A DNA stretch of 64,000 nt from Anaerolineae bacterium. Lineage in GTDB: Bacteria > Chloroflexota > Anaerolineae > B4-G1 > SLSP01. Both the position numbers and the translations under genes were made by a program. Each line of letters begins with the position of its first letter. The first letter of the stretch is position 1. The notes under the pieces are model-generated. The model did not search any database and was not told the origin of the DNA. It saw only the letters and a list, made by a program, of their open reading frames with translations. Below, piece after piece: positions 14,896 to 29,178 of the stretch. The stretch spans positions 189,301-253,300 of the forward strand of contig DAOSNS010000002.1 of assembly GCA_035373625.1 (NCBI GenBank), in the 5' to 3' direction.

Positions 14896-15010
14896 ATCGT
14901 TCTCCTCACACCGACAAGATACTGAGGCTATATCACAAATTGCCAGCTATGATCCAAATGTTAATGTGCTATCCTTCACTATTAATGCAAATTATTATAC
15001 CGTAATTTTA

Positions 15011-15961
15011 GTAGGAGTAACCCAAGTTGCTACTCACTGAACTTAAGCGGAAAAACCAGGACAAATAGAAAGACTTTGAGTTCAAAGCCAGCAGCGGTCA
15101 CGGCATGAATAGATTTCGGCAGGAGTTGTTCAATCAAGCTGCCTGCTGTTTCCACCTTTTTACGATGCAGATTTTGGAGGTAGCGGATCCACGGCGGGAG
15201 GGGCCGTTTGGAATTTGCTTTGCGCATCGGGAGGAACTCCGAACCCGCTAAGCCATCGACATTGGCGAAATCGTCCTCAAAGTCGTAATCGGTATAGCCG
15301 CGATCGGCGTAAATGGTCGAACCCGCGGGCAAGTCAAAGGCAAAGTCTTCCAGCGTGCTCACATCCGCTACGGACCCGGGCGTGAGAAAGACTTCGACTG
15401 GCAGACCATCTTGGGTGACGAGTAAATGCACTTTGACACTGTAAAAGTAGCGTTTTTTACTGGCGCAGTACCCGCGATAGGTCTCATCGTGATAAATCTT
15501 GGCCCGGCGGATGCGGATATTGTCACACACCGCCACCGGGAACGAGTCGATGCTATAGATCGAGTCCGTGTTCAACGTTTTCCAGTAATCGGCTAAAGCG
15601 CCAAATATGCACCAGAACAGCCCCGCCAGGCGCTGTAAACGCCGACTAAAGCGACTGGGGCCGAGCATCTTGGGCATATAACCGTGTTCATGCAGCATCT
15701 TACAAGCCGCGGCGTAGTTACCGTCGAAAAACATGGCCGCGGTCAGGGCGGCGGTCATGACTTCGGCGTCGCTCATTTGGCACTGCGGGTCTTCATAATG
15801 ATGCAACCCTTTCAAGATATCATCACAAATGCAGAAAGCGGCTATAATTTGCGTATCCATGGATTCCCTCCGGTTTAGTCTTGGATTGTTCACCCGTAAC
15901 TATACCGCGGAATCCATGATTTTCTACTCTTTTCATAAGGTAGCAACTTGGGTTAGGAGTA
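15011..15961 (-). mobile_element. Intact insertion sequence (~950 bp): single DDE transposase ORF, 14-16-bp terminal inverted repeats and an 8-bp target-site duplication
   Basis: Left end TAGGAGTA|ACCCAAGTTGCTAC... and right end ...GTAGCAACTTGGGT|TAGGAGTA. The inverted repeat and flanking direct repeat TAGGAGTA were read directly. Confidence 0.7.
15030..15893 (-). CDS. DDE transposase (IS4/IS5-superfamily, IS982-like size)
   Basis: 287 aa. '...STIYADRGYTDYDFEDD...' DxGY-type motif. Sits between the inverted repeats. Confidence 0.7.
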   Translation of the reverse strand: MNNPRLNRRESMDTQIIAAFCICDDILKGLHHYEDPQCQMSDAEVMTAALTAAMFFDGNYAAACKMLHEHGYMPKMLGPSRFSRRLQRLAGLFWCIFGALADYWKTLNTDSIYSIDSFPVAVCDNIRIRRAKIYHDETYRGYCASKKRYFYSVKVHLLVTQDGLPVEVFLTPGSVADVSTLEDFAFDLPAGSTIYADRGYTDYDFEDDFANVDGLAGSEFLPMRKANSKRPLPPWIRYLQNLHRKKVETAGSLIEQLLPKSIHAVTAAGFELKVFLFVLVFPLKFSE

Positions 15962-15963
15962 AT

Positions 15964-17355
15964 ATGATAAACGATAATATTAAACAGGTTATTGATGGCG
16001 GTTATTGCATTGGTTGTGGTGCTTGTGCGGCCTTGCCAAATTCTCTTTTTGTAATGGAAATAAATCAGTATGGGCAGTTAATGGCAGTTGATCGTGGTGA
16101 TTTATCTAATGAGACATTTTCTACAAACTTGGATGTTATTTGCCCTTTTTCTAATAAAGCACCTGATGAAAATACGATAGCCCGGGCACTGTTTGGCGGT
16201 GTGATACCTTATGATGAATATGCCGGCTACTACCAAGATATTTATGCCGGATATGTAATAGAGGACGATTATCGAAAAAACGGTAGTTCTGGGGGGAGTG
16301 TTTCTTGGTTAGCAGCAGAACTGATCCAGTTAGGATTAGTAGATGGTATTATCCATGTAAAATCTCTGGAAAACAATCCTTCGCGTTTGTTTGGCTATGC
16401 TATTTCAACAAGCGTAGAGCAAGCCAGGCAAGGGGCTAAGTCTAAATATTACCCGATAGAAATGTCAGAAGTTATAAAATTGGTACGAGAGCAGCCAGGA
16501 CGTTATGCTTTTGTAGGGTTGCCCTGCTTTGTGAAAGCGGCGCGATTATTAACTCGAAATGATCCTGTTTTGGCAGAACGAATAGTATTTTTTATTGGAT
16601 TAGTTTGTGGACATTTAAAGAGTACAAAGTTTGCAGAAATGTTAGCTTGGCAGTGCGGAATTGCGCCTGAAAAGCTGGATTATATTGATTTCCGAGTCAA
16701 ATTGCCGGAATATCCCGCTAATAAATACGGTATACGAGTGCGATCTGGATCAGTGGATTATTCTATGACACAACCTGTTGATAATTTATTCGGTAGTAGT
16801 TGGGGATTGGGGTTTTTCCGCTATAAGGCCTGTGATTATTGTGATGATGTTGTTGCGGAAACTGCAGATGTTACTATTGGAGATGCCTGGCTCTCGCGTT
16901 ATATAAAAGACAGCGCGGGAACTAATTTGATCATTGTACGAAATCCGATCTTATCTGAAGTAATCGGAGATGCAGTTCGGACATCTAGGTTGAAATTAGA
17001 TGAATTGTCTGTGAGTGATGTTTACCATTCTCAGGCGGGTGGATTCCGCCACAGACGAGACGGACTGGGGTATCGCCTTTACTTGGCGGATTCTGAGCAT
17101 ATATGGCGTCCAACAAAGCGTGTTCAACCTCATGATGGAAAACGATTTGGTAGACGTTGGCGCCAAAAGCAGCGATTGCGAGTACAGATGGCAGAACAAA
17201 GCCATTTGGCTTTCCACGAAGCCGCTATTCAAGGTGATTTTGATGTCTTTAAACGGCAGATGCAGCCTCTATTAGATGCCTATTTAAAGGTTGCGCGACC
17301 GACATTAGGGCAGCGAATCTCTTATGTCTTAAAGAAACTAAAATTGAGACCATGA
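15964..17355 (+). CDS. Coenzyme F420 hydrogenase/dehydrogenase beta-subunit-like (FrhB-family) Fe-S protein, the type usually paired with polysaccharide pyruvyl transferases
   Basis: N-terminal 'CIGCGACAALP' cysteine cluster. About 460 aa. Immediately upstream of a pyruvyl transferase gene. The start was moved to the ATG at 15964, just outside the IS end; the ORF track start at 15829 lies inside the IS. Confidence 0.6.
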   Translation: MINDNIKQVIDGGYCIGCGACAALPNSLFVMEINQYGQLMAVDRGDLSNETFSTNLDVICPFSNKAPDENTIARALFGGVIPYDEYAGYYQDIYAGYVIEDDYRKNGSSGGSVSWLAAELIQLGLVDGIIHVKSLENNPSRLFGYAISTSVEQARQGAKSKYYPIEMSEVIKLVREQPGRYAFVGLPCFVKAARLLTRNDPVLAERIVFFIGLVCGHLKSTKFAEMLAWQCGIAPEKLDYIDFRVKLPEYPANKYGIRVRSGSVDYSMTQPVDNLFGSSWGLGFFRYKACDYCDDVVAETADVTIGDAWLSRYIKDSAGTNLIIVRNPILSEVIGDAVRTSRLKLDELSVSDVYHSQAGGFRHRRDGLGYRLYLADSEHIWRPTKRVQPHDGKRFGRRWRQKQRLRVQMAEQSHLAFHEAAIQGDFDVFKRQMQPLLDAYLKVARPTLGQRISYVLKKLKLRP

Positions 17356-17367
17356 ATTGAGGCGGAA

Positions 17368-18651
17368 ATGAAAAACATACTAATTATCAATCAACATAGT
17401 GATAATCGAGGCGACCAGGCTGCCTGTCGTGCGATGGTGCGGTCGTTGGAACGAATGATGCCCGATTCTTATTTTACAATTGTTTCTTATAGTCCTCAGT
17501 TTCCACTCATTACAGGAGAGAATATTTCTCACTTGGGCTTCAACGCCTTCTCAAAGAAGAATCTGATCTTATCAACTTTATGGGCGATTTTCCCTTTTCT
17601 GCGTAGGGCATTATCATCATCCATTGCGTCAGAAAATCTTTCCATTTTGCGCGCTTATCAGTCGGCGGATATTGTCATTTCTGCGCCTGGAGGGCCTTAT
17701 ATTGGCGATTTGTATAGTATGGAGTTGCGATTTTTGTATTTTGATTGGCTCTCAAGTGTATTCAATAAATTATGGATAATTTATGCCCCTTCCATGGGAC
17801 CGTTTAATAAGCAAGGGCGTAATATTCTGCGTCGCTATGTTTTGAATAAGGCTGTGTGTATTTTGGTGCGTGATCCCATATCGTTTGAGCATGTAGAAAA
17901 ACTGAAGCTAAAACCGCCGCTGTTCCTGGCTGCCGATAGCGCTTTGCAGGAGAACTTTAACGATTGTGATTTACAATCTCTGAAAAAAAGAGCAAATATA
18001 CCTGATAATGTAGAATTGTTAGTTGGGATGACTCCTGCCGATCTAAGTTGGCACCCTTCCCGCTTGAACACGCCCGAAGATTCTTCTATTCTTACTACAG
18101 AACAAATAGCCTTGATTCTTGCGAAAACTCTGGATTGGCTATGGGAAGAATATCGAGCGTGTACGGTGTTCTTTCCACAACTTTTTGGACGGCAAAGCGA
18201 CCGAGACATTATAGAAAAGGTTATTGCGTTCGCCGAACATGGTCATACAGCGAAGATATTACCTTTTGAAATGGATTCAGACGATCAACAGTGTTTGGCG
18301 CGCGCGATGGATTTATTTATTGGTATGCGCTATCATTCGGCTATTTTTGCCGCGAAAGCATACACGCCTGTGATTTGCGTCGCTTATGAACATAAAGCTG
18401 TCGGATTTATGCAAAGCGTTGGATTGGGTGAGTATGTTATTCTCGTTGATCAATTGTCCGAAGACAGACTTAAAACACTTGTAAAGAAGTGCCTTAGTGA
18501 GTCGGCAGTTATAACAGATCACTTGCGAATCACTATGCCAGATTTAGAATCGAAAGCTTTATTGAGTTCAAGGGTCGTGACCGATATCTTGACCGCTTTT
18601 GGCTCGAACCGAAACATGTTGCGGCGCACTCTTGTCGAGAAATATCATTAG
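17368..18651 (+). CDS. Polysaccharide pyruvyl transferase family protein (CsaB/WcaK-like)
   Basis: 427 aa. 'NILIINQHSDNRGDQAACRAM' N-terminal motif characteristic of PS_pyruv_trans. Confidence 0.7.
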   Translation: MKNILIINQHSDNRGDQAACRAMVRSLERMMPDSYFTIVSYSPQFPLITGENISHLGFNAFSKKNLILSTLWAIFPFLRRALSSSIASENLSILRAYQSADIVISAPGGPYIGDLYSMELRFLYFDWLSSVFNKLWIIYAPSMGPFNKQGRNILRRYVLNKAVCILVRDPISFEHVEKLKLKPPLFLAADSALQENFNDCDLQSLKKRANIPDNVELLVGMTPADLSWHPSRLNTPEDSSILTTEQIALILAKTLDWLWEEYRACTVFFPQLFGRQSDRDIIEKVIAFAEHGHTAKILPFEMDSDDQQCLARAMDLFIGMRYHSAIFAAKAYTPVICVAYEHKAVGFMQSVGLGEYVILVDQLSEDRLKTLVKKCLSESAVITDHLRITMPDLESKALLSSRVVTDILTAFGSNRNMLRRTLVEKYH

Positions 18652-18671
18652 CATCTTGTGAGCGTATTTTA

Positions 18672-20204
18672 ATGAAAACTGTCCAAAAAAATATAGTTTT
18701 TAATGTGATTCAGACTTTTGTTCCCTTGATTGTATGGATCGGTCTTACTCCTCTTATTTTGCGTTCTCTTGGCCCCACACGTTTTGGGGCTTGGGCAGTT
18801 ACTCAATCAGTTGTTGGATATATGGGAATACTGGACTTGGGTATCGGCCCTACGGTGATCAAGTTGGTCGCTGATGCAACCTCTCACCAAGATTGGCAAA
18901 GGGCGCGATGTGTAGGTGGTTCAGCATTATTGGCCTATGGCGTCCTAGGTGGTATTGCCGGCATTGTAGTTTTTGGCGGATTACCCCTTTTTATGCGAGC
19001 CGTGTATGATTTACCTCCTGATGTGGAGCTACAGTTAAATCAAATAGCTTTGGTATTTGGCGTGCAAATTATTATTTCCCTACCAGGGAGTGTATTCCCC
19101 AGTATTGCTCGCGGTTTACAGCGCTATGAAATCTATGCGACTCAGCGTGTTGTACAAGTCTTTTTAAATGCGTTTTTTATTATCTTTTCGCTCAGAAAAC
19201 AGTGGGGAGTTTTGGGCGTGATTGGCTCTGGAACTCTGGCTACTTCCCTGACCTATTTGGGAATGATGCTATGGACTTGGGGATTGGCCCGCAATGTTTT
19301 TCCGACGTGGAAAGGCGTAACCTGGGATTCCTTGAAATCCCTTACGACGTACAGTTTCCTGGTTTTTATCCTGCAAGTTTCAGGGGTCGTGATATTTAGT
19401 ACCAGTAAAATTATTCTTGGGGCTGTTACATCCCTGGATGCGGTCACGGTGTATGATGTAGCGTCGCGCATTTTTGATTATCTTCGGACTATGACCACGG
19501 CATTAACGGATGCTTTGATGCCGGCGGCTGCAAGTTTGCAAGCGATGGGTGAGGAGCAAAAAGTCCGCAAGTTATTTGCAGATGGGGTTTCTAGTATGGT
19601 GACATTCTTTTTGTTGGTTGCAGTCCCTCTTTTCGCTCTTGCCCCGTTAGTGACACTGGCCTGGGTTGGTGAAGAAATTGGGGTACAATCCGGACTGGTA
19701 TTACGAATTTTGTTGATAGGATTTGGAGCTTATTGTTTGACCCGGGTGCCGATGACCGTGTTGATGGGGACGGGTAAAATTAAGGTATATGCCATAGTGC
19801 GTGCGATTTCTATTTTGTTTATTCCTTTACTTGTATGGGGCGGGGCCTGGAAATTTGGGGTGATAGGTGTTGCGATTGCAAGCAGCGTGGGGTTGTTGTT
19901 GATAGATGGCTATCTTTTTGTTTATGCGTGCAAATTATTTAAGGAGAGTATTTGGACTCCTTTGAAAGACAACTTATTGCTTCTCTTGTCAGCGTTTTTT
20001 GCAACTATTGTCGCTATATTCCTTTCTCACTTTCTAGTGTCTCAACCATGGAATATTTGGTTGCACATTGTTATTACTGGATTTATATGGGTAGGAGTTT
20101 TTGGTGGACTGAGTAGTGCAGGTTACACACTGAAATTGTGGCATTTGCCGCAACTTGTAAACGCACTCCCTTTTGTCCATGGCCAGAGTGAAAGAGAATT
20201 TTAG
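18672..20204 (+). CDS. wzx: Wzx-like polysaccharide flippase (MOP superfamily)
   Basis: 510 aa, roughly 12-14 predicted TM segments. N-terminal 'NIVFNVIQTFVPLIVWIGLTPLILRSLGPTRFGAWAV' is typical of the polysaccharide biosynthesis protein family. Confidence 0.75.
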   Translation: MKTVQKNIVFNVIQTFVPLIVWIGLTPLILRSLGPTRFGAWAVTQSVVGYMGILDLGIGPTVIKLVADATSHQDWQRARCVGGSALLAYGVLGGIAGIVVFGGLPLFMRAVYDLPPDVELQLNQIALVFGVQIIISLPGSVFPSIARGLQRYEIYATQRVVQVFLNAFFIIFSLRKQWGVLGVIGSGTLATSLTYLGMMLWTWGLARNVFPTWKGVTWDSLKSLTTYSFLVFILQVSGVVIFSTSKIILGAVTSLDAVTVYDVASRIFDYLRTMTTALTDALMPAAASLQAMGEEQKVRKLFADGVSSMVTFFLLVAVPLFALAPLVTLAWVGEEIGVQSGLVLRILLIGFGAYCLTRVPMTVLMGTGKIKVYAIVRAISILFIPLLVWGGAWKFGVIGVAIASSVGLLLIDGYLFVYACKLFKESIWTPLKDNLLLLLSAFFATIVAIFLSHFLVSQPWNIWLHIVITGFIWVGVFGGLSSAGYTLKLWHLPQLVNALPFVHGQSEREF

Positions 20205-21924
20205 CCGTAATGACTCTATTCTAGGAAGAAGTTTAATGGGAATACGGCAACGTATTTTATCGTTTTCTCGATTCTTAAAAATATTTGCCTTTTGGGCTAT
20301 GATGATTGCTCTATTACTCTTGTGTAGTCAAAAAGTAACCAACAATAGCCTTATGCTTTCTCTACTTAACTACACCCTGGGCAAAAGTAATAATCTATGT
20401 GCCTCGGAATTCGCAAAGGGGATATCTGCGTGGCCCATCCTGGGTGAGTTTATGAGCGAACAGGACGTAGCTACCTTATGGGTGACTGGACGGATTGCCC
20501 TGGCTTGTGATAATTCTCCAGCAGCGTATGAGGCTTTGTATCCTTTAACCGGGATAGTTGAGAATAACCCTTTGCTTTATCAAGATGTTGTTATTGCGTT
20601 AAGTGCAGGGAATGATTTTAAGACTCTAGAAGATACTTATCAACGTTTTCCTCCTCCTGTTCAGGCTGTTAGTGATACGCTGGCGTTGGCTTACATAAAC
20701 TATACGAAGGACTATGAAACTGCTTTGCGATTTCGTCCAGATGATTTGTTCGTGGCCTATCATTTGTGGCTTGAAGCGAAGGATAGGAGCGATTTTGTTC
20801 AGACTGGAGTCTATAGTGATGCCTTAAATCATTTTACTTCTTCAGCTATTTCTCCAGACAATTCATATTTGTTCGAGCATACGATTGATGTGGCTCCTAG
20901 CCTTTTCCAGGAGGGTATTTGGTCTCAGGATAAACTGAAGAATGTGGTCGGATTTTGGGTTTGGCAATATAGCAATATAGATAGTGTGGCCAAGCTGTTG
21001 GAAGATATGGTTTTGCTTTACCCTGGCGATCCAACCTGGAATTTTTACATGGCAGAATTGTATCATCGCCGTGGAGAATTAGTGTCCGCCATCGAGTTTT
21101 ATTCAAATACGCTTACTCTAGCGCCCAATTACTACTACATCCATTTCCGTTTAGGGATGGTTTATGAAGAAATGTCTTTGAAGCATATAGAGAATTCGGA
21201 AGCTCTCTTACTCAGTGCAATTGATCAATACAAATTGTATCATGAGAGTGCGCCTCGTGATCTGGTGGCTTTAGAGAGATTAGTCGAATTACAAAAAAAG
21301 ATAGGATACCCAAATAGTTCCTTTCAAACAGAGCTTGATTCATTAGTAAATCTCAAAGCGCTAGTGGCAGAGCAGCTTAATGTTTCGGAGCAGAAAGTGT
21401 TGATAGGCCCTAACCTGTTGCCCTCTGGAAGTTTTCTCGAGTCTGGAGAAATTGCTAACTGGTATATCTCCAAGATGTTCAATTCACCGCCATTCGGAGA
21501 AGCGTTATATGTAGTAGGAGTAGATATGTTAGGTGTGCCAGGAAAAAACTCTCTGGGACGGGTCATCGGTTTGTGGAAGCGCTCGCGACCTGATCAGAGT
21601 CTCCCTCGTGCTGGCTTTTGGGCCTGGAATCCCGAAGAAAGAGGTTACTGGCATCTAAGCGTTAAGCAAGGAGAAGTGTATGTAGTGAAGATACTGTATA
21701 GGTCTTTTGATGCTTTGGCCTCTTTTTGGTTATCTAGTGAAGCGGGTGCATTATCGAATATATCGGATTACTTCTTACCTTCTACCGGGGGGCAGTCTAC
21801 TTTGTTTGTTTATGTTTTTGAGTGTTTTAAGGATACAGATTTGTCCTTTTTATTGCGATATTGGGGGGAAGGGGAAGTTTACTTCTACGACGTTAGCTTA
21901 CAAAAGGTCGACGTCAGTTTTTAG
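20173..21924 (+). CDS. Hypothetical membrane-anchored protein with TPR-like repeats
   Basis: 583 aa. N-terminal TM ('IFAFWAMMIALLLL'). TPR-like 'AELYHRRGELVSAIEFYSNTLTLAPNYYYIHFRLGMVYEEM'. AT-rich codon usage. Confidence 0.4.
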   Translation: MSMARVKENFSRNDSILGRSLMGIRQRILSFSRFLKIFAFWAMMIALLLLCSQKVTNNSLMLSLLNYTLGKSNNLCASEFAKGISAWPILGEFMSEQDVATLWVTGRIALACDNSPAAYEALYPLTGIVENNPLLYQDVVIALSAGNDFKTLEDTYQRFPPPVQAVSDTLALAYINYTKDYETALRFRPDDLFVAYHLWLEAKDRSDFVQTGVYSDALNHFTSSAISPDNSYLFEHTIDVAPSLFQEGIWSQDKLKNVVGFWVWQYSNIDSVAKLLEDMVLLYPGDPTWNFYMAELYHRRGELVSAIEFYSNTLTLAPNYYYIHFRLGMVYEEMSLKHIENSEALLLSAIDQYKLYHESAPRDLVALERLVELQKKIGYPNSSFQTELDSLVNLKALVAEQLNVSEQKVLIGPNLLPSGSFLESGEIANWYISKMFNSPPFGEALYVVGVDMLGVPGKNSLGRVIGLWKRSRPDQSLPRAGFWAWNPEERGYWHLSVKQGEVYVVKILYRSFDALASFWLSSEAGALSNISDYFLPSTGGQSTLFVYVFECFKDTDLSFLLRYWGEGEVYFYDVSLQKVDVSF

Positions 21925-21968
21925 ATCGTTCATTTCATTTAACCATTTATTAGTATTCTAGTGGTAGA

Positions 21969-23357
21969 GTGATATTTTATGAGGGAATAATGGAAATGGC
22001 AATTAACGTTGAATATATTTTTTTAGCTATATGGTACCTATTGTTCGCCGTCGGGGGAAGTTATTACCTGTACCGTTCTATCATCAGCCCTTTAGGAATT
22101 TTTGGGAGTGTTTATGTTAGTGTTTTTGCGTTACTGGCGATTCCCCTCGTTGATTATCGTCCTATAGGTCCAGAAACTTTTGCGTTGTTACTTCTCATTG
22201 GCTTTGTCTTTTCCGTCAGTTATGTTATTGTCGTCCGCGTCTTCCGTAAACCTCTTAGAAAGTCTGCATTAGCGAAACAAATACGATGGGATTTATCCGC
22301 TTTTCGCACCGTTTTATTGGCCTCGAATGTTTGTTCATCTATAGGAATCTTACTGCAAGTCTATTTCTTTGTACGTTTTTTCGGCGGCTTTGGCAATTAT
22401 TTCAATAATTTGAGTAGTGTCTATGCAATGCGACTATCAGAAGAGATACTTATTTCTTCCTGGATTGCCTATATGGGGAACATAGGATATGCTGCTGTTT
22501 TTGTGGCGGGTCAAACTTTAGCCATAAAAGGCAAACTCCTAAAACAACGCATGGTCTGTTGGTCTATTTTGAATGTCCTTTTATTGGGTATTTTAACTAT
22601 GGGAAGAGCAGCAATTCTTTGGGGTGGGCTATTTTTTGTAATTGGCTATCTAACAATGCTGGTCTCATATCGTGGGAAAGCGGGAGGCAAACTGATCCTG
22701 AAAAACAAACTGGCCATTGTTCTTCTGGGGGGGGGGGTGTTTGCCTTTGTTAATTACCTTCGTCAGGTTCGTGGAAAGGGAGATAACTTTTGGTCTACAA
22801 TTGCACCATTAAGTGCTTACATTAATTTACCTTACATTGGGCGCGATAGTTTTTTTTGGAATACCTTGGTGTCTAATTACGTATACCTTACCGGTCCTAT
22901 ACCGACCCTTGGGTATGTTATGGACCATCCTGACAATGTTGATTGGTTTTTGCGTTTACTCGCGCCCTTTGCTCGTGTTATTGGGAAAGATATTGTTCGC
23001 TATAGTGAGTTCTTAGCTATCCCTTTTGCGTTCAATGCGCGTTCTGCAATCGGTGAGCTGTATCTGGCCTTCGGTTTTTGGGGCACGCTGTTTATCTTTT
23101 TATTCGTGGGGGCTATTTCTGCCTTTTTGTACGAGAAGTTAAAGGCCGGCACTATACATTTTAATCAATTAGTTTTGTTATCCTGGTTGCTGATTTGGCT
23201 CGCATGGTCAGTTTTCTTCAGTTTAACCCGACAAGGATTTTTCTGGATTTCTGCATTTTGGCTCCTGGGATGCAATTTTGCTACAAGCTTGGCGAAGGTG
23301 CGAACTTCAATAAATACCCTTTCTTGTCAAACATTAGTGCAGAAAAATCAGTCTTAA
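21969..23357 (+). CDS. Polytopic membrane protein, putative Wzy-like repeat-unit polymerase
   Basis: 462 aa, about 10-12 TM segments, in a Wzx/GT context. No sharp motif. Assigned by topology and context. Confidence 0.45.
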   Translation: MIFYEGIMEMAINVEYIFLAIWYLLFAVGGSYYLYRSIISPLGIFGSVYVSVFALLAIPLVDYRPIGPETFALLLLIGFVFSVSYVIVVRVFRKPLRKSALAKQIRWDLSAFRTVLLASNVCSSIGILLQVYFFVRFFGGFGNYFNNLSSVYAMRLSEEILISSWIAYMGNIGYAAVFVAGQTLAIKGKLLKQRMVCWSILNVLLLGILTMGRAAILWGGLFFVIGYLTMLVSYRGKAGGKLILKNKLAIVLLGGGVFAFVNYLRQVRGKGDNFWSTIAPLSAYINLPYIGRDSFFWNTLVSNYVYLTGPIPTLGYVMDHPDNVDWFLRLLAPFARVIGKDIVRYSEFLAIPFAFNARSAIGELYLAFGFWGTLFIFLFVGAISAFLYEKLKAGTIHFNQLVLLSWLLIWLAWSVFFSLTRQGFFWISAFWLLGCNFATSLAKVRTSINTLSCQTLVQKNQS

Positions 23358-23388
23358 ATGCATAGGATGATAAGTCTCTTTCTCGACC

Positions 23389-24327
23389 TTGGGAATTTCA
23401 TACGAGATGAGTAGTTTATCTGTAGTAGTTCTAAGTTACAACAGTTTGGAATTACTTAAGCAATGCGTTCTCAACTTGTTGACGCTTACTAATTCCCCTG
23501 AAATTATCCTGGTTGACAATGGTTCGAGTGATGGTAGCGCTGAGTGGATAAAATCACAGACCAACTCGCAACTCTCTTCATATATTCTCGACCATAATCT
23601 GGGGTTTGCTGCTGGATGTAATGTGGGTATTCGGCAGAGTTCTGGTGATTATGTCTTGCTTCTAAATACGGATGCCTTTTTGACTTCAGATTCTTTAAAT
23701 TGCTTGATTCGGTATTTAGAAATTCACCCAAACGTTGGCATTGTGGGGCCACAACTTCTATATGCCGACGGTATGTGGCAAAGAAGCAGTGGGGCGGTTC
23801 CATCTGTCAGATCGGCCATATTGGAGGCATTGGGTATTACATCTTTACATCATTTACTTCTGGCTTGGTCCTGGCCTATTACTCGCAATTGGTGGCGTCC
23901 ACACGAGGTTGGATATGTGGATGGCGCGTGTATGTTGATTCGACGCGCCGTGATTGACGAAATCGGTTTACTAGATGAAAGCTTCTTCTTTTTTGTGGAA
24001 GATGCTGAATTTTGTCACCGGGCGCGGGAACATGGATGGCTGACGCATTATGTTCCCCAAAGCCGGGTGATACATTTGCGCGGCGGGAGTTCCTCCCAAA
24101 AGGACTTTCAGAAATCCGCATTAATGCAGTTAGCTTCAAGGAAACTTTTCATTGAAAGAGTGTATGGGAATAAAAGTTGGAAGAAGCTGACTTTTTGGGG
24201 CGCCCTTAATTATTGGATGCGCTATCACCTTTGCCGAGTCCTGGCAAAAAACTCCGCAAAATGCGAGAAATATCAATTTCTCAATGAGATTTATTGGAAA
24301 GAGTATTTGACCTCCAAAGCAGGATGA
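23389..24327 (+). CDS. Family 2 glycosyltransferase
   Basis: 'VVVLSYNSLELLKQCV...IILVDNGSSDGS' and 'FFFVEDAEFCHRA' (DxD / ED motifs). Confidence 0.8.
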   Translation: MGISYEMSSLSVVVLSYNSLELLKQCVLNLLTLTNSPEIILVDNGSSDGSAEWIKSQTNSQLSSYILDHNLGFAAGCNVGIRQSSGDYVLLLNTDAFLTSDSLNCLIRYLEIHPNVGIVGPQLLYADGMWQRSSGAVPSVRSAILEALGITSLHHLLLAWSWPITRNWWRPHEVGYVDGACMLIRRAVIDEIGLLDESFFFFVEDAEFCHRAREHGWLTHYVPQSRVIHLRGGSSSQKDFQKSALMQLASRKLFIERVYGNKSWKKLTFWGALNYWMRYHLCRVLAKNSAKCEKYQFLNEIYWKEYLTSKAG

Positions 24328-24351
24328 AATCATTGGGGCTGAGGTAATTCT

Positions 24352-25563
24352 ATGACTTCAGAAATTCTATTCCTGGCTTGGGAAAGTCCGTGGCCTGCGT
24401 TTGGCGGCGGCCCGATGCGCATGCTAGGATTGCTCAAAGAGCTCAGTAAAACATACCCGGTGCATCTGATGGTGGTCTCCGCAAAACCGTTGTCTGCAGA
24501 GCAAGAGACCGAGCTTCGAAACTATGCCATTTCAATCACACGTGTTCCTTTGGCCAGTGCTACGTTAAGCGACAAACTGCGCATCGCGGCATCTATGGTT
24601 ACCCGGCGGATGCCCTATCATTGTGCACTGCTTGCCCTTTCTTTCCGCCGCGCGCCTGATAAGTTAAAGGAAATCCATGCCTTTCCAGGTGTGGTTTATG
24701 CTAATTATGGTCATTGGGGAACGTTGGTTCGAGGGCGACAGGCTAGGAATTGGATCCTTGATCAGCAGAACGCGGATGTTGATTTCTGGCGGGTTTATGC
24801 AACACAAGCGACCAGTGTGTGGCTCAAGTTGGTTGCTTTGCTTAACTGGCGGCTGGCGGAGGCGCATTTTCCGCGTATCTATTCCAGTGTAGGGTGCGTT
24901 GTCTCTGTGTGCGAGGCCGACCGGCAATTAACATTGGATTTGGCGCCTCAAGCGCAGGTCGTGGTGATTGAAAATGGCGTGGATTGCGCCTATTACGTTC
25001 CAGACCGCGCGTCGCGTTCCGTCCCACCACGATTGTTGTTCACCGGCACCTCTGCGCCGCGCAATGTGCTGGCGCTGCGCCAGTTTGTGCGCGGCGTGTG
25101 GCCGCTTGTGCAACGAAAGCTGCCGGATACCGAGCTGTTGGTAGCAGGAAATTTCAAGCCAGAAGCACAGGTCGAGTTCAAACAATACAACAATATTCGC
25201 TTTACCGGACGGGTAGACGATATACGTCCATATTTCAACCAAAGTGATGTGTTTATTGCGCCATTTGAGGAAACGCATGGCTCCAAGCTAAAAATTGCTG
25301 AAGCGATGGCGATGGGGATGGCGATTGTCTCAACGCCGGAAGGCGTTCGGGGATTTGCGCTTGTGGATGGGGAATCGGTTTTGATTGCTCACAATAAAGA
25401 AGAGTTTGCTACACAGGTGATAGCTTTGCTGGAAGATCCGGCGCGACAGGCTCGTTTGGGTATGGCGGCACGTGAGATAGCATTGTCTACTATAGATTGG
25501 AAGGTATTGGGGCAGCGTTTGATTGCTATTGTTGAAGCAACGCGAGGTTGTTTCTCGATTTAA
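24352..25563 (+). CDS. Family 4 (GT-B) glycosyltransferase
   Basis: C-terminal 'FIAPFEETHGSKLKIAEAMAMGMAIVST' matches the GT4 E-x7-E region. Confidence 0.75.
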   Translation: MTSEILFLAWESPWPAFGGGPMRMLGLLKELSKTYPVHLMVVSAKPLSAEQETELRNYAISITRVPLASATLSDKLRIAASMVTRRMPYHCALLALSFRRAPDKLKEIHAFPGVVYANYGHWGTLVRGRQARNWILDQQNADVDFWRVYATQATSVWLKLVALLNWRLAEAHFPRIYSSVGCVVSVCEADRQLTLDLAPQAQVVVIENGVDCAYYVPDRASRSVPPRLLFTGTSAPRNVLALRQFVRGVWPLVQRKLPDTELLVAGNFKPEAQVEFKQYNNIRFTGRVDDIRPYFNQSDVFIAPFEETHGSKLKIAEAMAMGMAIVSTPEGVRGFALVDGESVLIAHNKEEFATQVIALLEDPARQARLGMAAREIALSTIDWKVLGQRLIAIVEATRGCFSI

Positions 25564-27845
25564 TGGTGGAGGTAAGCTTGCAGGCTCTCTATAATGCGGG
25601 GATTGTGGTTACCGGGTTTCTATGGGGATTGTTGGCTACTTCGCAAAATCCTATTGCTCTTACGGGTGTCATATCACCGCAGCTCACAATTGCCGGTGGT
25701 CAAACGATAGTTGCCAGCCCTTTAGTTACTGTCACCATTGATCCCGGGGATTTTACGCCTGTTGAGATGGCCTTTAGTCATGATGAGAGTCCCTTTTCCT
25801 CTTGGGAACCCTTTCAGTCAGCCCGAATTTGGCCCATGAGTGATCCGGAAACCGCGTATCAGGCCTATTTGATGACTCTGAACGAAGGCAGAGCGTTTTG
25901 TGATTGGGATAACGAATTTGGCTCGTTGGCTTGGGGTGAAAGTTATATCCTAGATAGTCTGCTTGATATGTATGAAGTGACCAAAAAGACCATCTATCTG
26001 CAAAAATTTAGCGAGCATGCCGATGCGGTTATTTCCCAAGGGGACGACAACGCAAACCGTCCCGACTATCGAGGTTTGTTATTGCCGGGTTGGAGCGCTT
26101 CCAGCTATTTAACGTTAGCCGACACTATGTACAGAGACACATCAGGACAACCGGGTCTCCTTGTAAGTGGACGCTCGAGTTTGCGGCAAAATCAAGTATC
26201 GGTGCGATTGACAGAAACGACTACAATAACCGGCACGTTGTGGCAATTGGACGTGCATCGCAGTTTGGCTGGGCGTGCCGGAATTGTGTTTTCCGATACG
26301 ACGCTACTTTTAAATGAGCCAAATTGGAATTTCAAAACCTGGCCTAGTGCCTTCAATCCTGGGGATGCTGTAGTTTATGATATTTATTATCCCTGGTTTT
26401 ATGTTTCCGAAATTCGTTTATATGGTGTTAATGGAAATGACGTGCAAGCCAATGACTTTGAACTTTATGTGGCTATGTACGACGCTCAGGGAGAATATAC
26501 CTCCATCGTGACATTTACTTTGCAGACTTTGGTTGATTACGGGCAATCCGTTATCGCGTTTCGTGACTTTAGACAGCAAGGACGCTATTGGAAAGTGCGT
26601 TACGTAGGAGATGCGCCGTTACAGCTTGCTCCAGAATCAGGCGTGTTGATACGATTGTATGAAGACCCCTCACCGCCGCGTTCAGAACGGTTTAACGCGC
26701 CTGATTGGGAAGTTTTGGCGGCCCAGGTCGGGCGAAATTCTGCATTGGTAAAACTGCAAAGCATCGGAATGCAGCGTTCGTTGGATTTGACTGGGGATTG
26801 GCAGTTTTTGACCCCGCAACGTTATCGTATGGCTTTACACACAGGGATGATAGCTTTTCCTCTGTTGCGTTTCGCGCTTCTGATAGAGAATGAAAACCTT
26901 GCCGAATGGCGGATCAAAGCGCAATCGTATTTGGAGTATGCTCGCTCCGCCGTTAATAGCCATCAAGATGAATGGCGGAGTATTTCGACGACTAGAGGAT
27001 TTTATGTTTTTCGGGAAGATGCGCCGGTATGGGCTAATGGCGTGAACTTGCCATTCAATCAACAAGCAGTGATGGGAAAAAGTCTATTGCTATTATATGA
27101 CCTAACGGGTGAGGAAACCTATCGCATTCAGGCTATGCAAATAGCTCAAGTTTTACGAGATGGTATGATTTATGATATTGAGACAGACTCCTATAAGTGG
27201 CACTACTGGTTTGGAGAAGGGTACGATGGTTGGAAAAATGTCGAAGGACGGTTTATACCGACTTACGGGGGATACAAAAGCGCTGAAAGTATCACCTACG
27301 CCTCTATAGATATTGATTTCGTGTTGCTTGCTCATCGCCATGGGATAGTTTTCTCTGTTTATGATATTGTTCGCCTGTCCAATACTTTTCTGCGCCATCT
27401 GACGACTGCTGATGGGCGATTGTGCTTTAGGGTGGACGATCAAGTTATAGAGGGAAGTTGTAGTAATTATTATGTCGATAATCCATTGAAGGTCACCGAG
27501 TACCTTGGGTTAACCGAAGTGGTTCCTGCCGTTTACCAGCGTATGGAGATGGTCCGACCTTTCTCTACCGCCCTCGGTAGTGTGGGTAGCGGTCGTAAAC
27601 CCTATTTCCTGTCGCAAACCCTTTACCATGCCCAATGGCGTTTAACGCCTCGGTCAGGGCAGCATAAAATTTGCGTGCAATTGCAAGATGCGCAGGGATT
27701 CATAAGTGGGCCGTGGTGTGATGAAGTTGTTTTGACGATTACGCCCAATGGTTGTCCATTGTTCAGGTCTTTAACGAGTGCTCTGGGGTGTGGTGAAATC
27801 ACGTTCAATTTGTACCAGTATTATCTGCCCATTATTGTGCGTTAA
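25563..27845 (+). CDS. Large hypothetical protein (about 760 aa) in the glycan cassette; function unknown, possibly a glycan-modifying or degrading enzyme
   Basis: Long uninterrupted ORF with AT-rich codon usage matching its neighbours. Start overlaps the upstream stop (TAATG). No motif recognised. Confidence 0.35.
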   Translation: MVEVSLQALYNAGIVVTGFLWGLLATSQNPIALTGVISPQLTIAGGQTIVASPLVTVTIDPGDFTPVEMAFSHDESPFSSWEPFQSARIWPMSDPETAYQAYLMTLNEGRAFCDWDNEFGSLAWGESYILDSLLDMYEVTKKTIYLQKFSEHADAVISQGDDNANRPDYRGLLLPGWSASSYLTLADTMYRDTSGQPGLLVSGRSSLRQNQVSVRLTETTTITGTLWQLDVHRSLAGRAGIVFSDTTLLLNEPNWNFKTWPSAFNPGDAVVYDIYYPWFYVSEIRLYGVNGNDVQANDFELYVAMYDAQGEYTSIVTFTLQTLVDYGQSVIAFRDFRQQGRYWKVRYVGDAPLQLAPESGVLIRLYEDPSPPRSERFNAPDWEVLAAQVGRNSALVKLQSIGMQRSLDLTGDWQFLTPQRYRMALHTGMIAFPLLRFALLIENENLAEWRIKAQSYLEYARSAVNSHQDEWRSISTTRGFYVFREDAPVWANGVNLPFNQQAVMGKSLLLLYDLTGEETYRIQAMQIAQVLRDGMIYDIETDSYKWHYWFGEGYDGWKNVEGRFIPTYGGYKSAESITYASIDIDFVLLAHRHGIVFSVYDIVRLSNTFLRHLTTADGRLCFRVDDQVIEGSCSNYYVDNPLKVTEYLGLTEVVPAVYQRMEMVRPFSTALGSVGSGRKPYFLSQTLYHAQWRLTPRSGQHKICVQLQDAQGFISGPWCDEVVLTITPNGCPLFRSLTSALGCGEITFNLYQYYLPIIVR

Positions 27846-27948
27846 TATGCCTTTATGCAATGAACGAGCATAACTATCCCGAAGTATACGGCTAGAGCAA
27901 GTGAGCTTGATGATCAAAGACGGGCCGAGACGTTGAGGTTGTAAATCA

Positions 27949-29178
27949 ATGCAGATTCTCTATTTGCATCAATACTTTAATACCCCCCAAGACTCCGGCG
28001 GCACCCGCTCCTACGAAATGGCGCGGCGATTGGTGGCGTATGGCCATCATGTGGACATGATTACGTCGCAGCGTGCCATCCAAGATGACGCAGGACATGG
28101 CTGGCTGGAAACTGAGGAAAGCGGCATCCACGTACATTGGCTGCCTGTGCCATACTCCAATGAAATGTCCTACTCGCAAAGGATTGGCGCGTTCTTCAAA
28201 TTTGCCATTGGCGCGGCGCGTAAAGCAGCTTCCCTGAAAGCCGATGTCGTGTTTGCCACCAGCACGCCACTGACCATCGCATTACCCGGCATCTATGCCG
28301 CGCGCCGGCAAAGGATTCCGTTTGTCTTCGAAGTGCGCGACCTGTGGCCGGAACTCCCGATTGCCGTGGGGGCGCTGCGCAATCCGGTGCTCAAGTGGGC
28401 AGCGCGTTGGTTGGAATGGATGGCCTATCACGCTTCCGCACACATCGTCGCGCTCTCGCCGGGAATGGCCGAGGGGGTGATGCGGCGCGGCATCCCGGCT
28501 TCGCGCGTGACCGTGATTCCCAACAGTTGTGATGTGGCAATGTTTGACGTTCCTCAAGATCGCGGGAAAACTATACGTCAAAAGTTAGGACTTGCGTCGG
28601 AGCAGCCTTTGATTGTGTATACCGGCACCTTCGGTCTGATCAACGGCGTGGGGTATCTGGTCAGAGTTGCTGCAGTGATGCGGACTATCGCGCCGGATGT
28701 TCGTTTCTTGCTGGTTGGCAGTGGGGCGGAACTGGAAAAAGTCACGCAGCAGGCGCACGACCTGGGTGTTTTAGGTAAGAACCTGTGGATTTGGTCCTCT
28801 CTTCCTAAAATTGAAATACCCGATGTGCTGGCCGCGGCGACTATAGCCACCTCGGTGTTTGTGCCTCTAAAGCCGATGTGGAATAACTCCGCTAACAAAT
28901 TCTTCGACGCGTTGGCTGCGCGCAAACCGATCGCCATTAACTACGGCGGTTGGCAAGCTGACCTGTTGCAAGAAACCGGAGCGGGAATCGTGTTGCCGCC
29001 GGATGATATTGACCAGGCTGCGCGGTTGCTGGCTGATTTCGCACGCGATACAGCGCATCTGCATAAAGCCTCTCTCGCCGCGCGGGAATTGGCCTACACC
29101 CGCTTCGCGCGCGACACGCTGGCTTCACAACTGGAAGCCGTGCTGCGCAGTGTGGTGGATCGAGCCAGGAGTACATAA
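27949..29178 (+). CDS. GT4 glycosyltransferase, WbuB-like
   Basis: 'MQILYLHQYFNTPQDSGGTRSYEMARRLVAYGHHVDMIT' is the characteristic WbuB-type N-terminus. Confidence 0.75.
   Translation: MQILYLHQYFNTPQDSGGTRSYEMARRLVAYGHHVDMITSQRAIQDDAGHGWLETEESGIHVHWLPVPYSNEMSYSQRIGAFFKFAIGAARKAASLKADVVFATSTPLTIALPGIYAARRQRIPFVFEVRDLWPELPIAVGALRNPVLKWAARWLEWMAYHASAHIVALSPGMAEGVMRRGIPASRVTVIPNSCDVAMFDVPQDRGKTIRQKLGLASEQPLIVYTGTFGLINGVGYLVRVAAVMRTIAPDVRFLLVGSGAELEKVTQQAHDLGVLGKNLWIWSSLPKIEIPDVLAAATIATSVFVPLKPMWNNSANKFFDALAARKPIAINYGGWQADLLQETGAGIVLPPDDIDQAARLLADFARDTAHLHKASLAARELAYTRFARDTLASQLEAVLRSVVDRARST

Follow-up and report, generated by a model that had tools for sequence, protein, structure and literature searches.

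A low-GC block with recently exchanged tracts in a Wzx/Wzy-type glycan locus of an uncultured Anaerolineae bacterium

The 64-kb stretch of Anaerolineae DNA analysed here (the window) contains an AT-rich block of about 12 kb which begins next to an intact insertion sequence (IS). This raises the question of whether the block is a foreign cassette delivered by that IS, as an earlier note had proposed. We consider it more probable, at roughly 0.8, that the block is the variable half of a surface-glycan locus, with a low GC content that would be old, alleles recently shuffled by homologous recombination, and an IS982 element that arrived later. All sequences used for comparison are metagenome contigs.

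Composition and gene content of the AT-rich block

The block (15964–27900) has a GC content of 0.442, versus 0.567 for the remainder of the window. In 1-kb windows the backbone averages 0.581 (sd 0.033, lowest value 0.502), while the cassette lies at 0.40–0.45 until 24 kb and at 0.47–0.50 thereafter. The best two-change-point model places the breaks at 15788 and 27982 (log-likelihood gain 322), about 180 bp (left) and 80 bp (right) from the shifts that the earlier note had read by eye at about 15961 and 27900. GC3 ranges from 0.32 to 0.53 (median 0.413) in the eight cassette genes and from 0.55 to 0.77 (median 0.706) in 21 backbone genes (Mann–Whitney p = 4.6e-5), and GC1 is likewise reduced. 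The block and its compositional shift are thus confirmed, both by sliding-window GC and by codon position. The block is nevertheless heterogeneous, with a GC of 0.423 from frhB to GT2, 0.521 in GT4a and 0.466 in the gene for a 760-aa protein; recursive segmentation prefers breaks at 14889, 24371 and 38271. The right-hand module (27949–38484), previously called native, is intermediate (GC 0.534; median GC3 0.575, p = 0.003 against the backbone), and its PglD-like gene has a GC3 of 0.39. The features of the locus are as follows.

7741–9543, + strand: bifunctional ATP-sulfurylase/APS kinase (sat-cysC), conserved left flank (Pfam)
9550–10746, + strand: GHMP-family galactokinase-like gene (galK), conserved left flank (Pfam)
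11257–15958, unstranded: lineage-specific 4.7-kb insertion region
15020–15953, - strand: intact IS982-family IS (NCBIfam NF033520, 173 bits against a cut-off of 130, model positions 1–241 of 243)
15964–17355, + strand: FrhB/FdhB-like Fe-S flavoprotein, first cassette gene (Pfam PF04422 and PF04432)
17368–18651, + strand: polysaccharide pyruvyl transferase, CsaB/WcaK-like (PF04230, 81 bits)
18672–20204, + strand: multi-pass membrane protein, probable Wzx-type flippase (sole match NF041503 WZX_like, 31 bits, cut-off 300)
20236–21924, + strand: TPR-containing protein, 562 aa (weak Pfam TPR matches; alternative start possible at 20173)
21990–23357, + strand: Wzy repeat-unit polymerase (TIGR04370, 59.8 bits against a cut-off of 40)
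23407–24327, + strand: GT2 glycosyltransferase (PF00535)
24352–25563, + strand: GT4 glycosyltransferase GT4a (Pfam), GC 0.52, conserved in relatives as neighbour of the anchor
25563–27845, + strand: 760-aa membrane-anchored protein of no known family (13 full-length homologues at 51–59%)
27949–29178, + strand: GC-rich GT4 anchor glycosyltransferase, the WbuB-like enzyme of the earlier note (Pfam)
29178–38484, + strand: conserved right-hand module (Pfam; synteny with L061 and others)

The gene calls made from the bare sequence hold at domain level for FrhB, PS_pyruv_trans, TPR, GT2 and both GT4 proteins (Pfam) and for Wzy (TIGR04370), while the Wzx call has a weak, sub-threshold match. The FrhB-like protein scores under the cut-offs of true F420 enzymes, and the pyruvyl transferase under those of the CsaB and WcaK models. 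The flippase-like protein gave no match in a Pfam search; its size and position agree with the flippases of three relatives (L010, L060 and L061), and it is probably, on a weak assignment, of the Wzx type. The 760-aa protein matches no family in Pfam or NCBIfam, but weak GH76, GH88 and epimerase signals are present, and it is probably a carbohydrate-active domain of the (alpha/alpha)-barrel type, interrupted by a beta-sandwich insert. The right-hand module encodes a PglC-like phosphoglycosyl transferase, a PglD-like acetyltransferase, a PglE-like aminotransferase and a PglF-like dehydratase, together with a Wzy_C (ligase/polymerase-family) protein, an NTP_transf_5 protein and a Wzz/PCP chain-length protein. 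With a pyruvylation pair, a flippase-like protein, a polymerase and glycosyltransferases all present, the view of the cassette as that part of a Wzx/Wzy-type glycan locus which assembles the repeat unit is supported.

Low-GC cassettes in relatives of the window

One comparison is lineage B (L062 and L063), in which the corresponding low-GC frhB-like gene lies at the same site next to galK (GC 0.41 versus 0.60). Its order is sat/galK, a homologue of a small ORF of the window (82%), about 170 bp, and the start of frhB, so that some 0.5 kb separate sat-cysC/galK from the first gene of the cassette. The left flank is 82.3% identical to L063 at the nucleotide level over 7769–10761 (proteins 89.9% for the sulfurylase/kinase and 85.9% for the galactokinase-like protein). 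Homology stops at 11256 and resumes at 15959; lineage B has neither the IS nor any equivalent of 11257–15958, and the roughly 170 bp there are unrelated to the 4.7 kb of the window, which hold a DUF3782/PD-(D/E)XK gene, a PIN/VapC-like gene, an MntA-like nucleotidyltransferase, small ORFs and the IS982 element.

Other relatives carry cassettes of similar composition. L009 has FrhB, PyrT, GT4, TPR, Wzy, GT2 (60%), GT4a (72%) and the anchor, at a GC of 0.41–0.47 with a step to 0.58 at the anchor, and L010 shows the same step with genes other than those of the window. L073–75 contain Wzx, TPR, Wzy, GT2 and GT4a (71–75% nucleotide identity, GC 0.43). In L060 and L061 a flippase, Wzy, GT2 (50–55%), GT4 and a homologue of the 760-aa protein, at the same position as in the window but absent from L009, are followed by the anchor, PglC and so on. 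L061 runs on into Sua5 (68%) and sigma-70 (78%) and is therefore the orthologous locus; its GC is 0.45–0.54 versus 0.60–0.69 in the flanks. The TPR protein is found in every cassette version compared, GT4a is 55% identical to that of L012 (GT4b directly adjoins it there, as in L009), and the anchor is 80–82% identical to L009 and L010 and 55–68% to many Chloroflexota.

Homologous or parallel low-GC cassettes thus occur in every relative examined, which indicates that the low GC is old and clade-wide and no mark of recent arrival. The block makes up the 5' half of the locus and does not interrupt its middle. Relatives have such cassettes, homologous or functionally parallel, ahead of the same GT4 anchor, as seen at the galK site of lineage B and in the orthologous L061. 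A recent foreign origin of the low GC is contradicted for the whole cassette by the same depression in all relatives, with alleles 68–80% diverged, a finding that the earlier note had itself named as telling against it. Nor is the suggested donor from a different phylum visible: for the pyruvyl transferase the closest outside homologue has 58% identity and the rest reach at most 40%.

The low GC may also not be foreign at all: selection, or a bias in mutation and repair, might hold the genes AT-rich (with low expression, regulation or the make-up of membrane proteins as examples of a cause) under vertical descent, with only short recombination tracts moving. The GC depression of every relative, with diverged alleles and no sign of amelioration, would fit this, as would the same pattern in wzx and wzy of Salmonella, of which it was written that "this needs explanation" (PMC3715488). 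We nevertheless regard it as unlikely: the shift goes beyond amino-acid composition and is seen in GC3, at about 0.3, and the membrane proteins are no richer in AT than the soluble enzymes (FrhB-like, pyruvyl transferase, GT2). In addition, the wholly different gene content of close relatives (L010 versus the window) requires replacement and not vertical descent alone, and the cassette alleles (68–78%) are more diverged than the backbone (82%), which fits a long-lived, exchanged allele pool.

Exchanged tracts and their junctions

Comparison with co-occurring lineages divides the block and its right-hand edge into three segments.

16246–21206, unstranded: T1, a recombination tract of 4.96 kb with about 99.9% identity to co-occurring lineage(s)
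21207–24033, unstranded: diverged core, 2.83 kb (TPR 3' end, wzy, 5' part of GT2), about 78–81% identical where the other allele is seen (21207–21681)
24034–29056, unstranded: T2, a recombination tract of 5.02 kb with about 99.9% identity between lineages, present as a contig of its own in a mixed sample

Over the two tracts together there are 6 mismatches in 9,307 nt, versus 514 in 3,004 for the backbone, while the wzy-centred 2.8 kb and the DNA outside the tracts are 68–87% identical. At J1 (about 16237–16245, in the frhB-like gene) L062 has some 30% mismatches up to 16245, then 2 in 697 nt. At J2 (21206/21207, in the TPR gene) L071 and L072 show 0–1 mismatch over about 1.3 kb to 21206 and their first mismatch at 21207, exactly the position foretold from the k-mer-dependent contig ends. 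J3 (about 24033/24034, in GT2) and J4 (29056/29057, in the anchor) are the ends of a shared contig (L077) which equals window 24034–29056 with 1 mismatch; at J4, L076 matches the window over 26791–29056 except for 2 SNPs and diverges from 29057. Fisher p values are 3e-47 for J1 and 2e-54 for J2, and 1e-17 to 1e-54 overall. The alternative core allele is seen for 21207–21681 only, and the rest of the core and J3 rest on assembly-graph logic and the ends of L077. The contigs placed in lineage B (L062/63, L071/72, L076) are short and not physically linked; we infer that they belong to one genome, but more than one lineage may be involved.

Pieces of the cassette have therefore been exchanged recently with related species, probably by homologous recombination, and the locus is a mosaic, as had been supposed from the sequence. 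Horizontal exchange holds in the form of roughly 10 kb that are about 99.9% identical to a lineage with an 82% backbone, but not with the AT-rich block as the unit moved: the boundaries at 16246, 21206/7, 24034 and 29056/7 do not match those of GC, and on the right the crossover falls within the GC-rich WbuB-like glycosyltransferase, 1.1 kb into it.

The tract evidence comes from short contigs of mixed communities, and assemblers break and mis-join at shared sequence, so the mosaic could in principle consist of chimeric contigs of two strains with no real exchange. This is very improbable. A chimera would need a shared 127–141-nt k-mer, and hence an identical tract between alleles otherwise about 70% identical. 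Junction contigs recur across assemblers and samples (L072, from MEGAHIT, lies inside L071, a SPAdes-style NODE), L062 and L063 are from two JGI assemblies, and the SNPs of L062 (16300, 16467) are its own, unlike those of the window and L056/57. The ends of the branch-specific contigs of the wzy region (L066–L069) shift by the exact difference in k (21080/21066 and 24160/24174), the shared segment was assembled separately, as a contig of 5,023 bp, in a sample that also gave a branch-specific contig, and several long contigs and two NCBI MAGs repeat the arrangement of the window with 100% identity.

The insertion element and the kind of locus

Members of the IS982 family in ISfinder are about 1 kb long and produce 3–9-bp duplications. 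The element described here (about 934 bp, transposase above the NCBIfam cut-off) has a 276-aa transposase ORF (15030–15860), perfect 16-nt inverted repeats (15018–15033 and 15940–15955) and an exact 8–9-bp target-site duplication, TAGGAGTA(A), at 15012–15020 and 15954–15962, which makes it a simple insertion. The 9-bp direct repeat TAGGAGTAA lies just outside the inverted repeats, in the ribosome-binding site of the frhB-like gene; the element sits in the 5' leader of the operon and duplicates its Shine–Dalgarno sequence. About 120 bp of AT-rich DNA lie to its left (14900–15011), so it is inside an AT-rich leader and not at the edge of the block. Its own composition (GC 0.52, GC3 0.63) is nearer that of the backbone than that of the cassette. 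The window holds only these two inverted-repeat copies and no further IS982, hence no composite structure is visible. All 16 contigs with the exact transposase protein have it at the same site; a search for an exact IS-free copy of the window's own allele found none.

That this element is the acquiring IS, which carried a single foreign cassette out of a distant donor of low GC and into a glycan locus that was native and GC-rich, is the least probable reading and largely refuted: the GC3 drop a few bases from its end, its intact state and surroundings rich in mobile and toxin-antitoxin genes would favour it, but the element is a single, backbone-like, simple insertion with no second end, the cassette occupies the same site in lineage B although the element is missing there, homologous cassettes of low GC are found in relatives at the orthologous locus, the tracts start 290 bp past it and end inside a GC-rich glycosyltransferase, and the closest outside homologue is 58% identical. 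The IS is a bystander, an independent, later transposition seen in the lineage of the window only.

The favoured reading is thus that the AT-rich block would form the half of a Wzx/Wzy-dependent surface-glycan locus that is variable and specific to the repeat unit (pyruvylation pair, flippase-like protein, TPR protein, Wzy polymerase, GT2, GT4 and GH-like 760-aa protein), placed directly 3' of sat-cysC/galK in lineage B and upstream of the conserved GT4/PglC-D-E-F/Wzy_C/Wzz module clade-wide. Low GC would be an old property of all its versions in the clade. Homologous recombination between co-resident related species, with crossovers within the genes for the FrhB-like, TPR and GT2 proteins and in the 3' end of the anchor, would have produced the two tracts of about 5 kb, and IS982 would have entered the ribosome-binding site of the first gene separately and later. 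As the wzy-centred core stays diverged, the lineages probably differ in polymerase specificity. The product would be a pyruvylated cell-surface heteropolysaccharide on a diNAcBac-type primer.

To our knowledge Chloroflexota is a phylum without LPS, so the product would not be an O antigen in the strict sense. The consecutive genes for a PglC-type small phosphoglycosyl transferase, a PglD-type acetyltransferase with PglD_N, a DegT aminotransferase and a PglF-type membrane dehydratase recall the bacillosamine (pgl) loci of Campylobacter and Neisseria, and a Wzy_C-family protein (possibly a ligase or O-oligosaccharyltransferase) and a CsaB-like pyruvyl transferase are shared with pgl and with Gram-positive S-layer and pyruvylated cell-wall polymer loci. 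The likeness is at domain level only, with substrates and acceptor putative here; no PglB-type oligosaccharyltransferase was seen and, unlike in these systems, the presence of Wzy and Wzz suggests that the glycan is polymerised.

O-antigen and capsule loci of Enterobacteriaceae have conserved flanking and precursor genes around a variable centre of glycosyltransferases, wzx, wzy and modifiers such as pyruvyl transferases, and near-identical clusters are common to different species (PMC4616057). In Salmonella, wzx, wzy and glycosyltransferase genes lie far under the genome GC, in segments of differing GC with a gradient toward the flanks (PMC3715488). The present locus shares with Salmonella rfb, E. 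coli O-antigen and Klebsiella cps the conserved flanks and variable centre, the low-GC wzx, wzy and glycosyltransferase genes with their segments of unequal GC, the near-identity between species and the crossovers in conserved edge genes. It differs in its host, in a Pgl-like diNAcBac-type conserved module instead of rml, man or gnd, in its TPR protein and uncharacterised 760-aa barrel protein (not known from enterobacterial loci), and in a GC-rich genome (0.58) which makes the contrast larger. Leptospira has near-identical rfb clusters in different species, with partial and whole-cluster transfers and nearby IS of unproven role (PMC9736851); low GC relative to the flanks, near-identity across species, partial transfers and a nearby IS are shared, whereas the present case has short tracts, each of about 5 kb, whose limits were mapped to the nucleotide in metagenome contigs, and the IS is positively excluded as a vehicle. 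The locus is therefore of a known kind, the mosaic O-antigen or capsule type, and its interest lies in being a new example in uncultured Chloroflexota.

Composition, gene content and relatives of the AT-rich block

The earlier note had described an abrupt change in base composition and codon usage at both ends of the block (15964-27900), and this description holds. In 1-kb sliding segments the GC content is about 0.55-0.60 before a drop near 15.9 kb, lies at 0.40-0.45 beyond it and recovers at about 27.9 kb, the block as a whole having a GC of 0.442 compared to 0.567 for the remaining window. A likelihood search for two change points placed them at 15788 and 27982, very near the limits proposed in that note, and GC3 ranges from 0.32 to 0.53 for the eight cassette genes and from 0.55 to 0.77 for 21 backbone genes (Mann-Whitney p=4.6e-5). 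Since GC differs among the segments, the composition steps down instead of forming one clean island.

GC content of segments of the glycan locus
frhB-like gene to GT2: GC 0.423
GT4a: GC 0.521
25563-27845, gene for the 760-aa protein: GC 0.466
27949-38484, right-hand module counted from the anchor GT (GC-rich GT4, 27949-29178, + strand): GC 0.534, intermediate

The PglD-like gene (29792-30409) has a GC3 of 0.39 amid the otherwise GC-richer right-hand module, which indicates that this module is a mosaic too. A GC peak of 0.64 is found over 38272-41151, with Sua5 included.

Most of the gene calls made by eye for the block (FrhB-like protein, pyruvyl transferase, TPR protein, Wzy, glycosyltransferases) were confirmed by their domains, while the flippase-like (Wzx) protein has no Pfam match and a weak sub-threshold one to NF041503 (31 bits, cut-off 300); the equivalent position in relatives is occupied by Polysacc_synt_3 or MurJ-type flippases. 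The Wzy polymerase (21969-23357) scores 59.8 bits against TIGR04370 (cut-off 40). The pyruvyl transferase belongs to PF04230 (81 bits, cut-off 25.3) and scores below the cut-offs of both the CsaB and the WcaK equivalog models. The FrhB-like protein carries the Pfam FrhB_FdhB_N/C domains, but scores of 23-41 bits against the true F420-enzyme equivalogs (cut-offs 269-475) mean that it is named FrhB-like and not FrhB. The TPR protein, GT2, GT4 and the anchor GT are supported by Pfam and NCBIfam scans. To the right of the anchor, Pfam identifies PglC-, PglD-, PglE- and PglF-like genes, a Wzy_C-family protein, an NTP_transf_5 protein and Wzz; an initiating phosphoglycosyl transferase is present at 29178-29795 (PF02397 Bac_transf, 224 bits) and the Wzz/PCP co-polymerase at 36352-38484 (PF02706, 35.6 bits, cut-off 25.5; PF13807, 32.1 bits, cut-off 27.7). 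The left side contains a sensor kinase, a response regulator, a hydrolase, an amidase, SSB, an ATP-sulfurylase/APS kinase and a galactokinase-like gene, followed by 4.7 kb of toxin-antitoxin and defence-like genes and the IS. This side has no glycan assembly machinery, so the block is the 5' half of the locus and not, as had been proposed, an insert midway through it.

No version of the cassette lacks the TPR protein, not even those whose remaining genes are unrelated, and its allele in lineage B (the related lineage of contigs L062/L063, L071/L072 and L076, treated together) is truncated to 449 aa in L071.

Positions of the TPR protein gene
Window: 20236-21924
L009: 5296-6381
L010: 887-2323
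L061: 3132-4994
L073: 1612-3291

A search with the anchor GT retrieved 43 loci from reference genomes, mostly from Chloroflexota. In the two closest, L009 and L010 (anchor GT 80% and 82% identical, respectively), a GC-rich anchor (0.58) follows at least 10 kb of DNA with a GC of 0.41-0.47. The same junction thus carries different genes in close relatives. The L009 cassette is rearranged and diverged (FrhB 35%, PyrT, GT4, TPR, Wzy, GT2 60%, GT4a 72%) and lacks the gene for the 760-aa protein, 155 bp taking the place of 2.5 kb in the window; that of L010 is unrelated (epimerase, TPR, GT4, Wzx, Wzy, GT4, GT4, methyltransferase). Loci L060 and L061 have the order flippase, Wzy, GT2, GT4, 760-aa homologue, anchor GT and PglC onward. 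At its right end L061 also carries NTP_transf_5, Sua5 (68%) and sigma-70 (78%) in the order of the window, which makes it the orthologous chromosomal locus; the GC of its cassette half is 0.45-0.54, versus 0.60-0.69 outside it. A further lineage (L073-75) has Wzx, TPR, Wzy, GT2 and GT4a in window order, with 71-75% nucleotide identity and a GC of 0.43. Low GC and shared architecture are therefore both old and clade-wide, an observation which the earlier note had itself named as speaking against its reading of a recently grafted foreign cassette. The persistently low GC could reflect an ancient import kept up by exchange inside an AT-rich allele pool, or it could be an intrinsic bias.

A search for a donor in another phylum, made with the pyruvyl transferase, gave no support to such an origin either. 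The nearest homologue outside (58% identity) lies on a 3.9-kb contig which also carries the FrhB-like partner; all others are at or below 40%, the named ones being from Phycisphaerae, Bacillota and Methanosarcina, so no donor phylum can be named. The anchor GT4 with PglC (and PglD/E/F) occurs at 45-64% protein identity in L015, L030, L039, L041 and L042, from Gammaproteobacteria (Wenzhouxiangella, Marinobacter, Vibrio, Colwellia), Myxococcota and Nitrospirota, so that the supposedly native module is itself widely spread across phyla.

Recombination tracts shared with lineage B

The MAG from which the window comes is represented at NCBI by two TPA assemblies and further by several assemblies of ENA, JGI and Logan. 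Long contigs bearing the IS repeatedly end about 470 bp into the frhB-like gene, and a probe placed just ahead of this stop point retrieved L062 and L063. The contigs assigned to lineage B are separate pieces and may derive from more than one lineage. Its ATP-sulfurylase/APS kinase and galactokinase-like genes (sat/galK, 7741-10746 in the window) are 82.3% identical to those of the window (proteins 90% and 86%). Next come a small ORF (82% identical) and an unrelated stretch of about 170 bp, which leads directly into the frhB-like gene; neither the IS nor a counterpart of window 11257-15958 is present. The drop in GC, from 0.60 to 0.41, coincides in position with that of the window. Within frhB, identity to the window is about 70% up to 16245 and 99.7% over the remaining 697 nt of L062, which contain 2 mismatches.

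An exact-protein look-up with Wzy returned short contigs which are 100% identical to the window and have recurring ends, at 21080-24160 (k=127 assemblies), 21066-24174 (k=141) and 21080-29056. The ends shift outward by exactly the difference in k, as branch-specific paths of a de Bruijn graph do, and this predicted variants from 21206/7 to about 24034. Such variants were found: L071 and L072 carry the other TPR allele and were obtained from two samples with two assemblers; both match the window as far as 21206, first differ from it at 21207 and are 72-84% identical beyond it. On the other side, L077 (5,023 bp), from the same sample as a branch-specific contig, corresponds to window 24034-29056 with one mismatch, and L076 equals the window over 26791-29056 save for two SNPs, with divergence setting in at 29057 (87% identity as far as 29152).

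Tracts shared between the window and the related lineage(s)
16246-21206, T1: the greater part of frhB, the genes for the pyruvyl transferase and the flippase-like protein, and three-fifths of the TPR gene (5' side)
24034-29056, T2: the 3' end of GT2, GT4a, the gene for the 760-aa protein and 90% of the anchor GT

Pooled, the tracts have 6 mismatches in 9,307 nt and the backbone 514 in 3,004 (about 99.9% identity in the tracts compared to 82% in sat/galK), and Fisher tests at the junctions gave p values from 4e-17 to 2e-54. The sequence comparison indicates that two tracts of about 5 kb have moved very recently between lineages which are otherwise 13-32% diverged around them, while a 2.8-kb core with wzy (21207-24033) stays allelic. 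Assembly chimerism could in principle produce such a mosaic, but is unlikely, considering that the junction contigs recur with different assemblers, that L062 has its own SNP haplotype and that the shared segment was also assembled as a separate contig (L077). Selection cannot explain the identity of the tracts, as 99.9% directly beside 70-87% is beyond its reach. At every crossover the two lineages have homologous sequence, which suggests homologous recombination as the natural mechanism. The earlier view of a mosaic locus subject to horizontal exchange is thus upheld, but not that of a recent acquisition of the whole block as one unit. The exchanged units do not follow the changes in GC: on the left the crossover lies 280 bp into the AT-rich frhB gene, on the right 1.1 kb into the GC-rich anchor.

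Past the anchor, L076 runs into an antitoxin gene resembling the one that follows the anchor in L010, and not into PglC. This Phd/YefM-like antitoxin (L010 11300-12406; L076 2390-2524) is accompanied by a PIN toxin in L010, and its location 3' of the anchor indicates that the right junction of the cassette is also a toxin-antitoxin insertion site in some lineages.

The IS982 element and the left flank

The transposase next to the block is of the IS982 DDE type (NF033520, 173 bits, cut-off 130, aligned over the full length). The element ends in perfect 16-nt inverted repeats (15018-15033 and 15940-15955), a sequence found in the window only at these two ends, and an exact 9-bp direct repeat, TAGGAGTAA, lies directly outside them (15012-20 and 15954-62). 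This target-site duplication brackets the IS alone, which argues for simple transposition. The insertion point is the Shine-Dalgarno region of the frhB-like gene, which was duplicated by the insertion. The GC3 of the element (0.63) is near backbone values and an AT-rich leader of about 120 bp extends to its left; together with its own duplication, these features are unlike those of a vehicle for the cassette. A composite transposon or IS-mobilized cassette was rejected on the grounds of a single IS in the window, no second IS end and a duplication around the IS alone. The proposal that the IS acquired the block therefore fails, the element also being outside the tracts and absent from lineage B.

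No second site of the element was found, as 16 of 16 contigs with the exact transposase have it at the same site, and it is fixed in every contig of the window's population. An exact 28-nt probe for an IS-free version of the window's own allele had no match in JGI metagenome contigs, and the IS-free state was observed only in the diverged lineage B. A promoter scan found no sigma-70-like promoter directed toward the cassette (+ strand) at the right end of the IS (15850-15963). An integrative genomic island was likewise rejected: there is no tRNA in the 64-kb window and hence no tRNA/att-site association, and no integrase domain among the scanned ORFs.

Islet between the galactokinase-like gene and the glycan locus
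11257-15958: DUF3782/PDDEXK gene, PIN-domain gene, MntA-like nucleotidyltransferase, small ORFs, IS982

This islet is missing from lineage B, which has about 170 bp instead, so that an insertion hot spot lies between galK and the glycan locus. A 74-bp direct repeat (11330-11402 and 13683-13756, 89% identical) surrounds the DUF3782/PD-(D/E)XK and PIN/VapC-like genes; as the window has no tRNAs, a tRNA or att site was rejected, and the repeat looks like a duplicated intergenic or promoter-like segment. Contigs L056, L057 and L058, from three independent assemblies, begin exactly at window 14413, which suggests a repeat or variant boundary close by. A transposase remnant read by eye on the minus strand (about 14470-14900) is unsupported by NCBIfam or Pfam.

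ATP-sulfurylase/APS-kinase genes (7741-9543 in the window) also adjoin the anchor-GT loci of other Chloroflexota (L017 8484-10172; L024 18278-19990), and the related locus L060 bears a sulfotransferase (12744-13730), a hint of sulfation in some of the glycans made by loci of this type.

The 760-aa protein and the wider setting of the locus

The 760-aa protein (25563-27845) is predicted to have an N-terminal transmembrane helix and a beta-rich middle (about 186-400) with helical flanks, in a model with a mean pLDDT of 56 and a pTM of 0.44 (14-sequence alignment). It matches no known family, and only about 14 full-length homologues were found in a large protein collection, two of whose contexts are L060 and L061. 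A profile search of 1.84 billion representatives gave 1,805 relatives at E<=1e-3 and 239 at E<=1e-30, most of which align in two parts of the protein (about 88-200 and about 410-625), a pattern suggestive of a barrel domain interrupted by the beta-sandwich. Pfam domains are absent from these relatives too. Within the family, GH88 matches 9 of the 14 members (best E 0.0014) and GH76 4 of the 14 (best E 0.003), all under gathering scores; a PDB sequence-profile search gave GH76 at E of about 0.1, and there is one weak GlcNAc 2-epimerase match. Foldseek against the PDB returned the GH76 Aman6, glucose-2-epimerase and glucuronyl C5-epimerase with probabilities up to 1.0 and TM scores of at most 0.33. 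Gly160-Asp161-Asp162 is invariant. These weak but convergent signals point to a putative (alpha/alpha)6-barrel carbohydrate-active fold with a CBM32-like insert; as no GH76, GH88 or AGE-type threshold is reached, this is a resemblance and not a membership. The N-terminal segment (about 28-100) matches a unit repeated in tandem in giant proteins, of which one protein of 4,464 aa has as many as 28 copies.

In pathogens, recombining polysaccharide loci of low GC and mosaic structure are textbook matter; in uncultured environmental phyla they are, to our knowledge, hardly documented, and our literature search found nothing specific on Anaerolineae glycan loci. Classical O-antigen and capsule loci have conserved edge genes, a variable centre and very low-GC wzx, wzy and GT genes, as well as segments differing in GC and near-identical clusters across species (PMC3715488, PMC4616057, PMC9736851). 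The present locus fits this picture in all these respects. New are its host, an uncultured Anaerolineae, its Pgl-like conserved module, the TPR protein and the 760-aa protein that accompany its cassette (the latter absent from L009), and the resolution of the recombination junctions out of public metagenome contigs.

With a probability of roughly one in three, we consider that co-resident uncultured Anaerolineae species share a pool of low-GC glycan-cassette alleles and shuffle pieces of about 5 kb while the wzy core is held distinct, a serotype-like diversification, presumably phage- or predator-driven, of which none has been described in the phylum; and that the unannotated (alpha/alpha)-barrel superfamily represented at this locus, with about 1,800 representatives and no Pfam model, may be a new class of extracytoplasmic glycan-processing enzymes.

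For practice, public metagenome contigs allow recombination junctions between species to be recovered at nucleotide resolution, the shift of contig ends with k-mer length being usable as a predictor, and the systematic breaking of contigs at this locus is relevant for strain-resolved binning. A GC anomaly beside an IS calls for a check of target duplications and relatives before IS-mediated acquisition is inferred. The 760-aa protein brings to notice an unannotated protein superfamily tied to glycan loci, and the surface-glycan genes of these Anaerolineae are exchanged over a backbone divergence of about 18%, which bears on phage-host dynamics.
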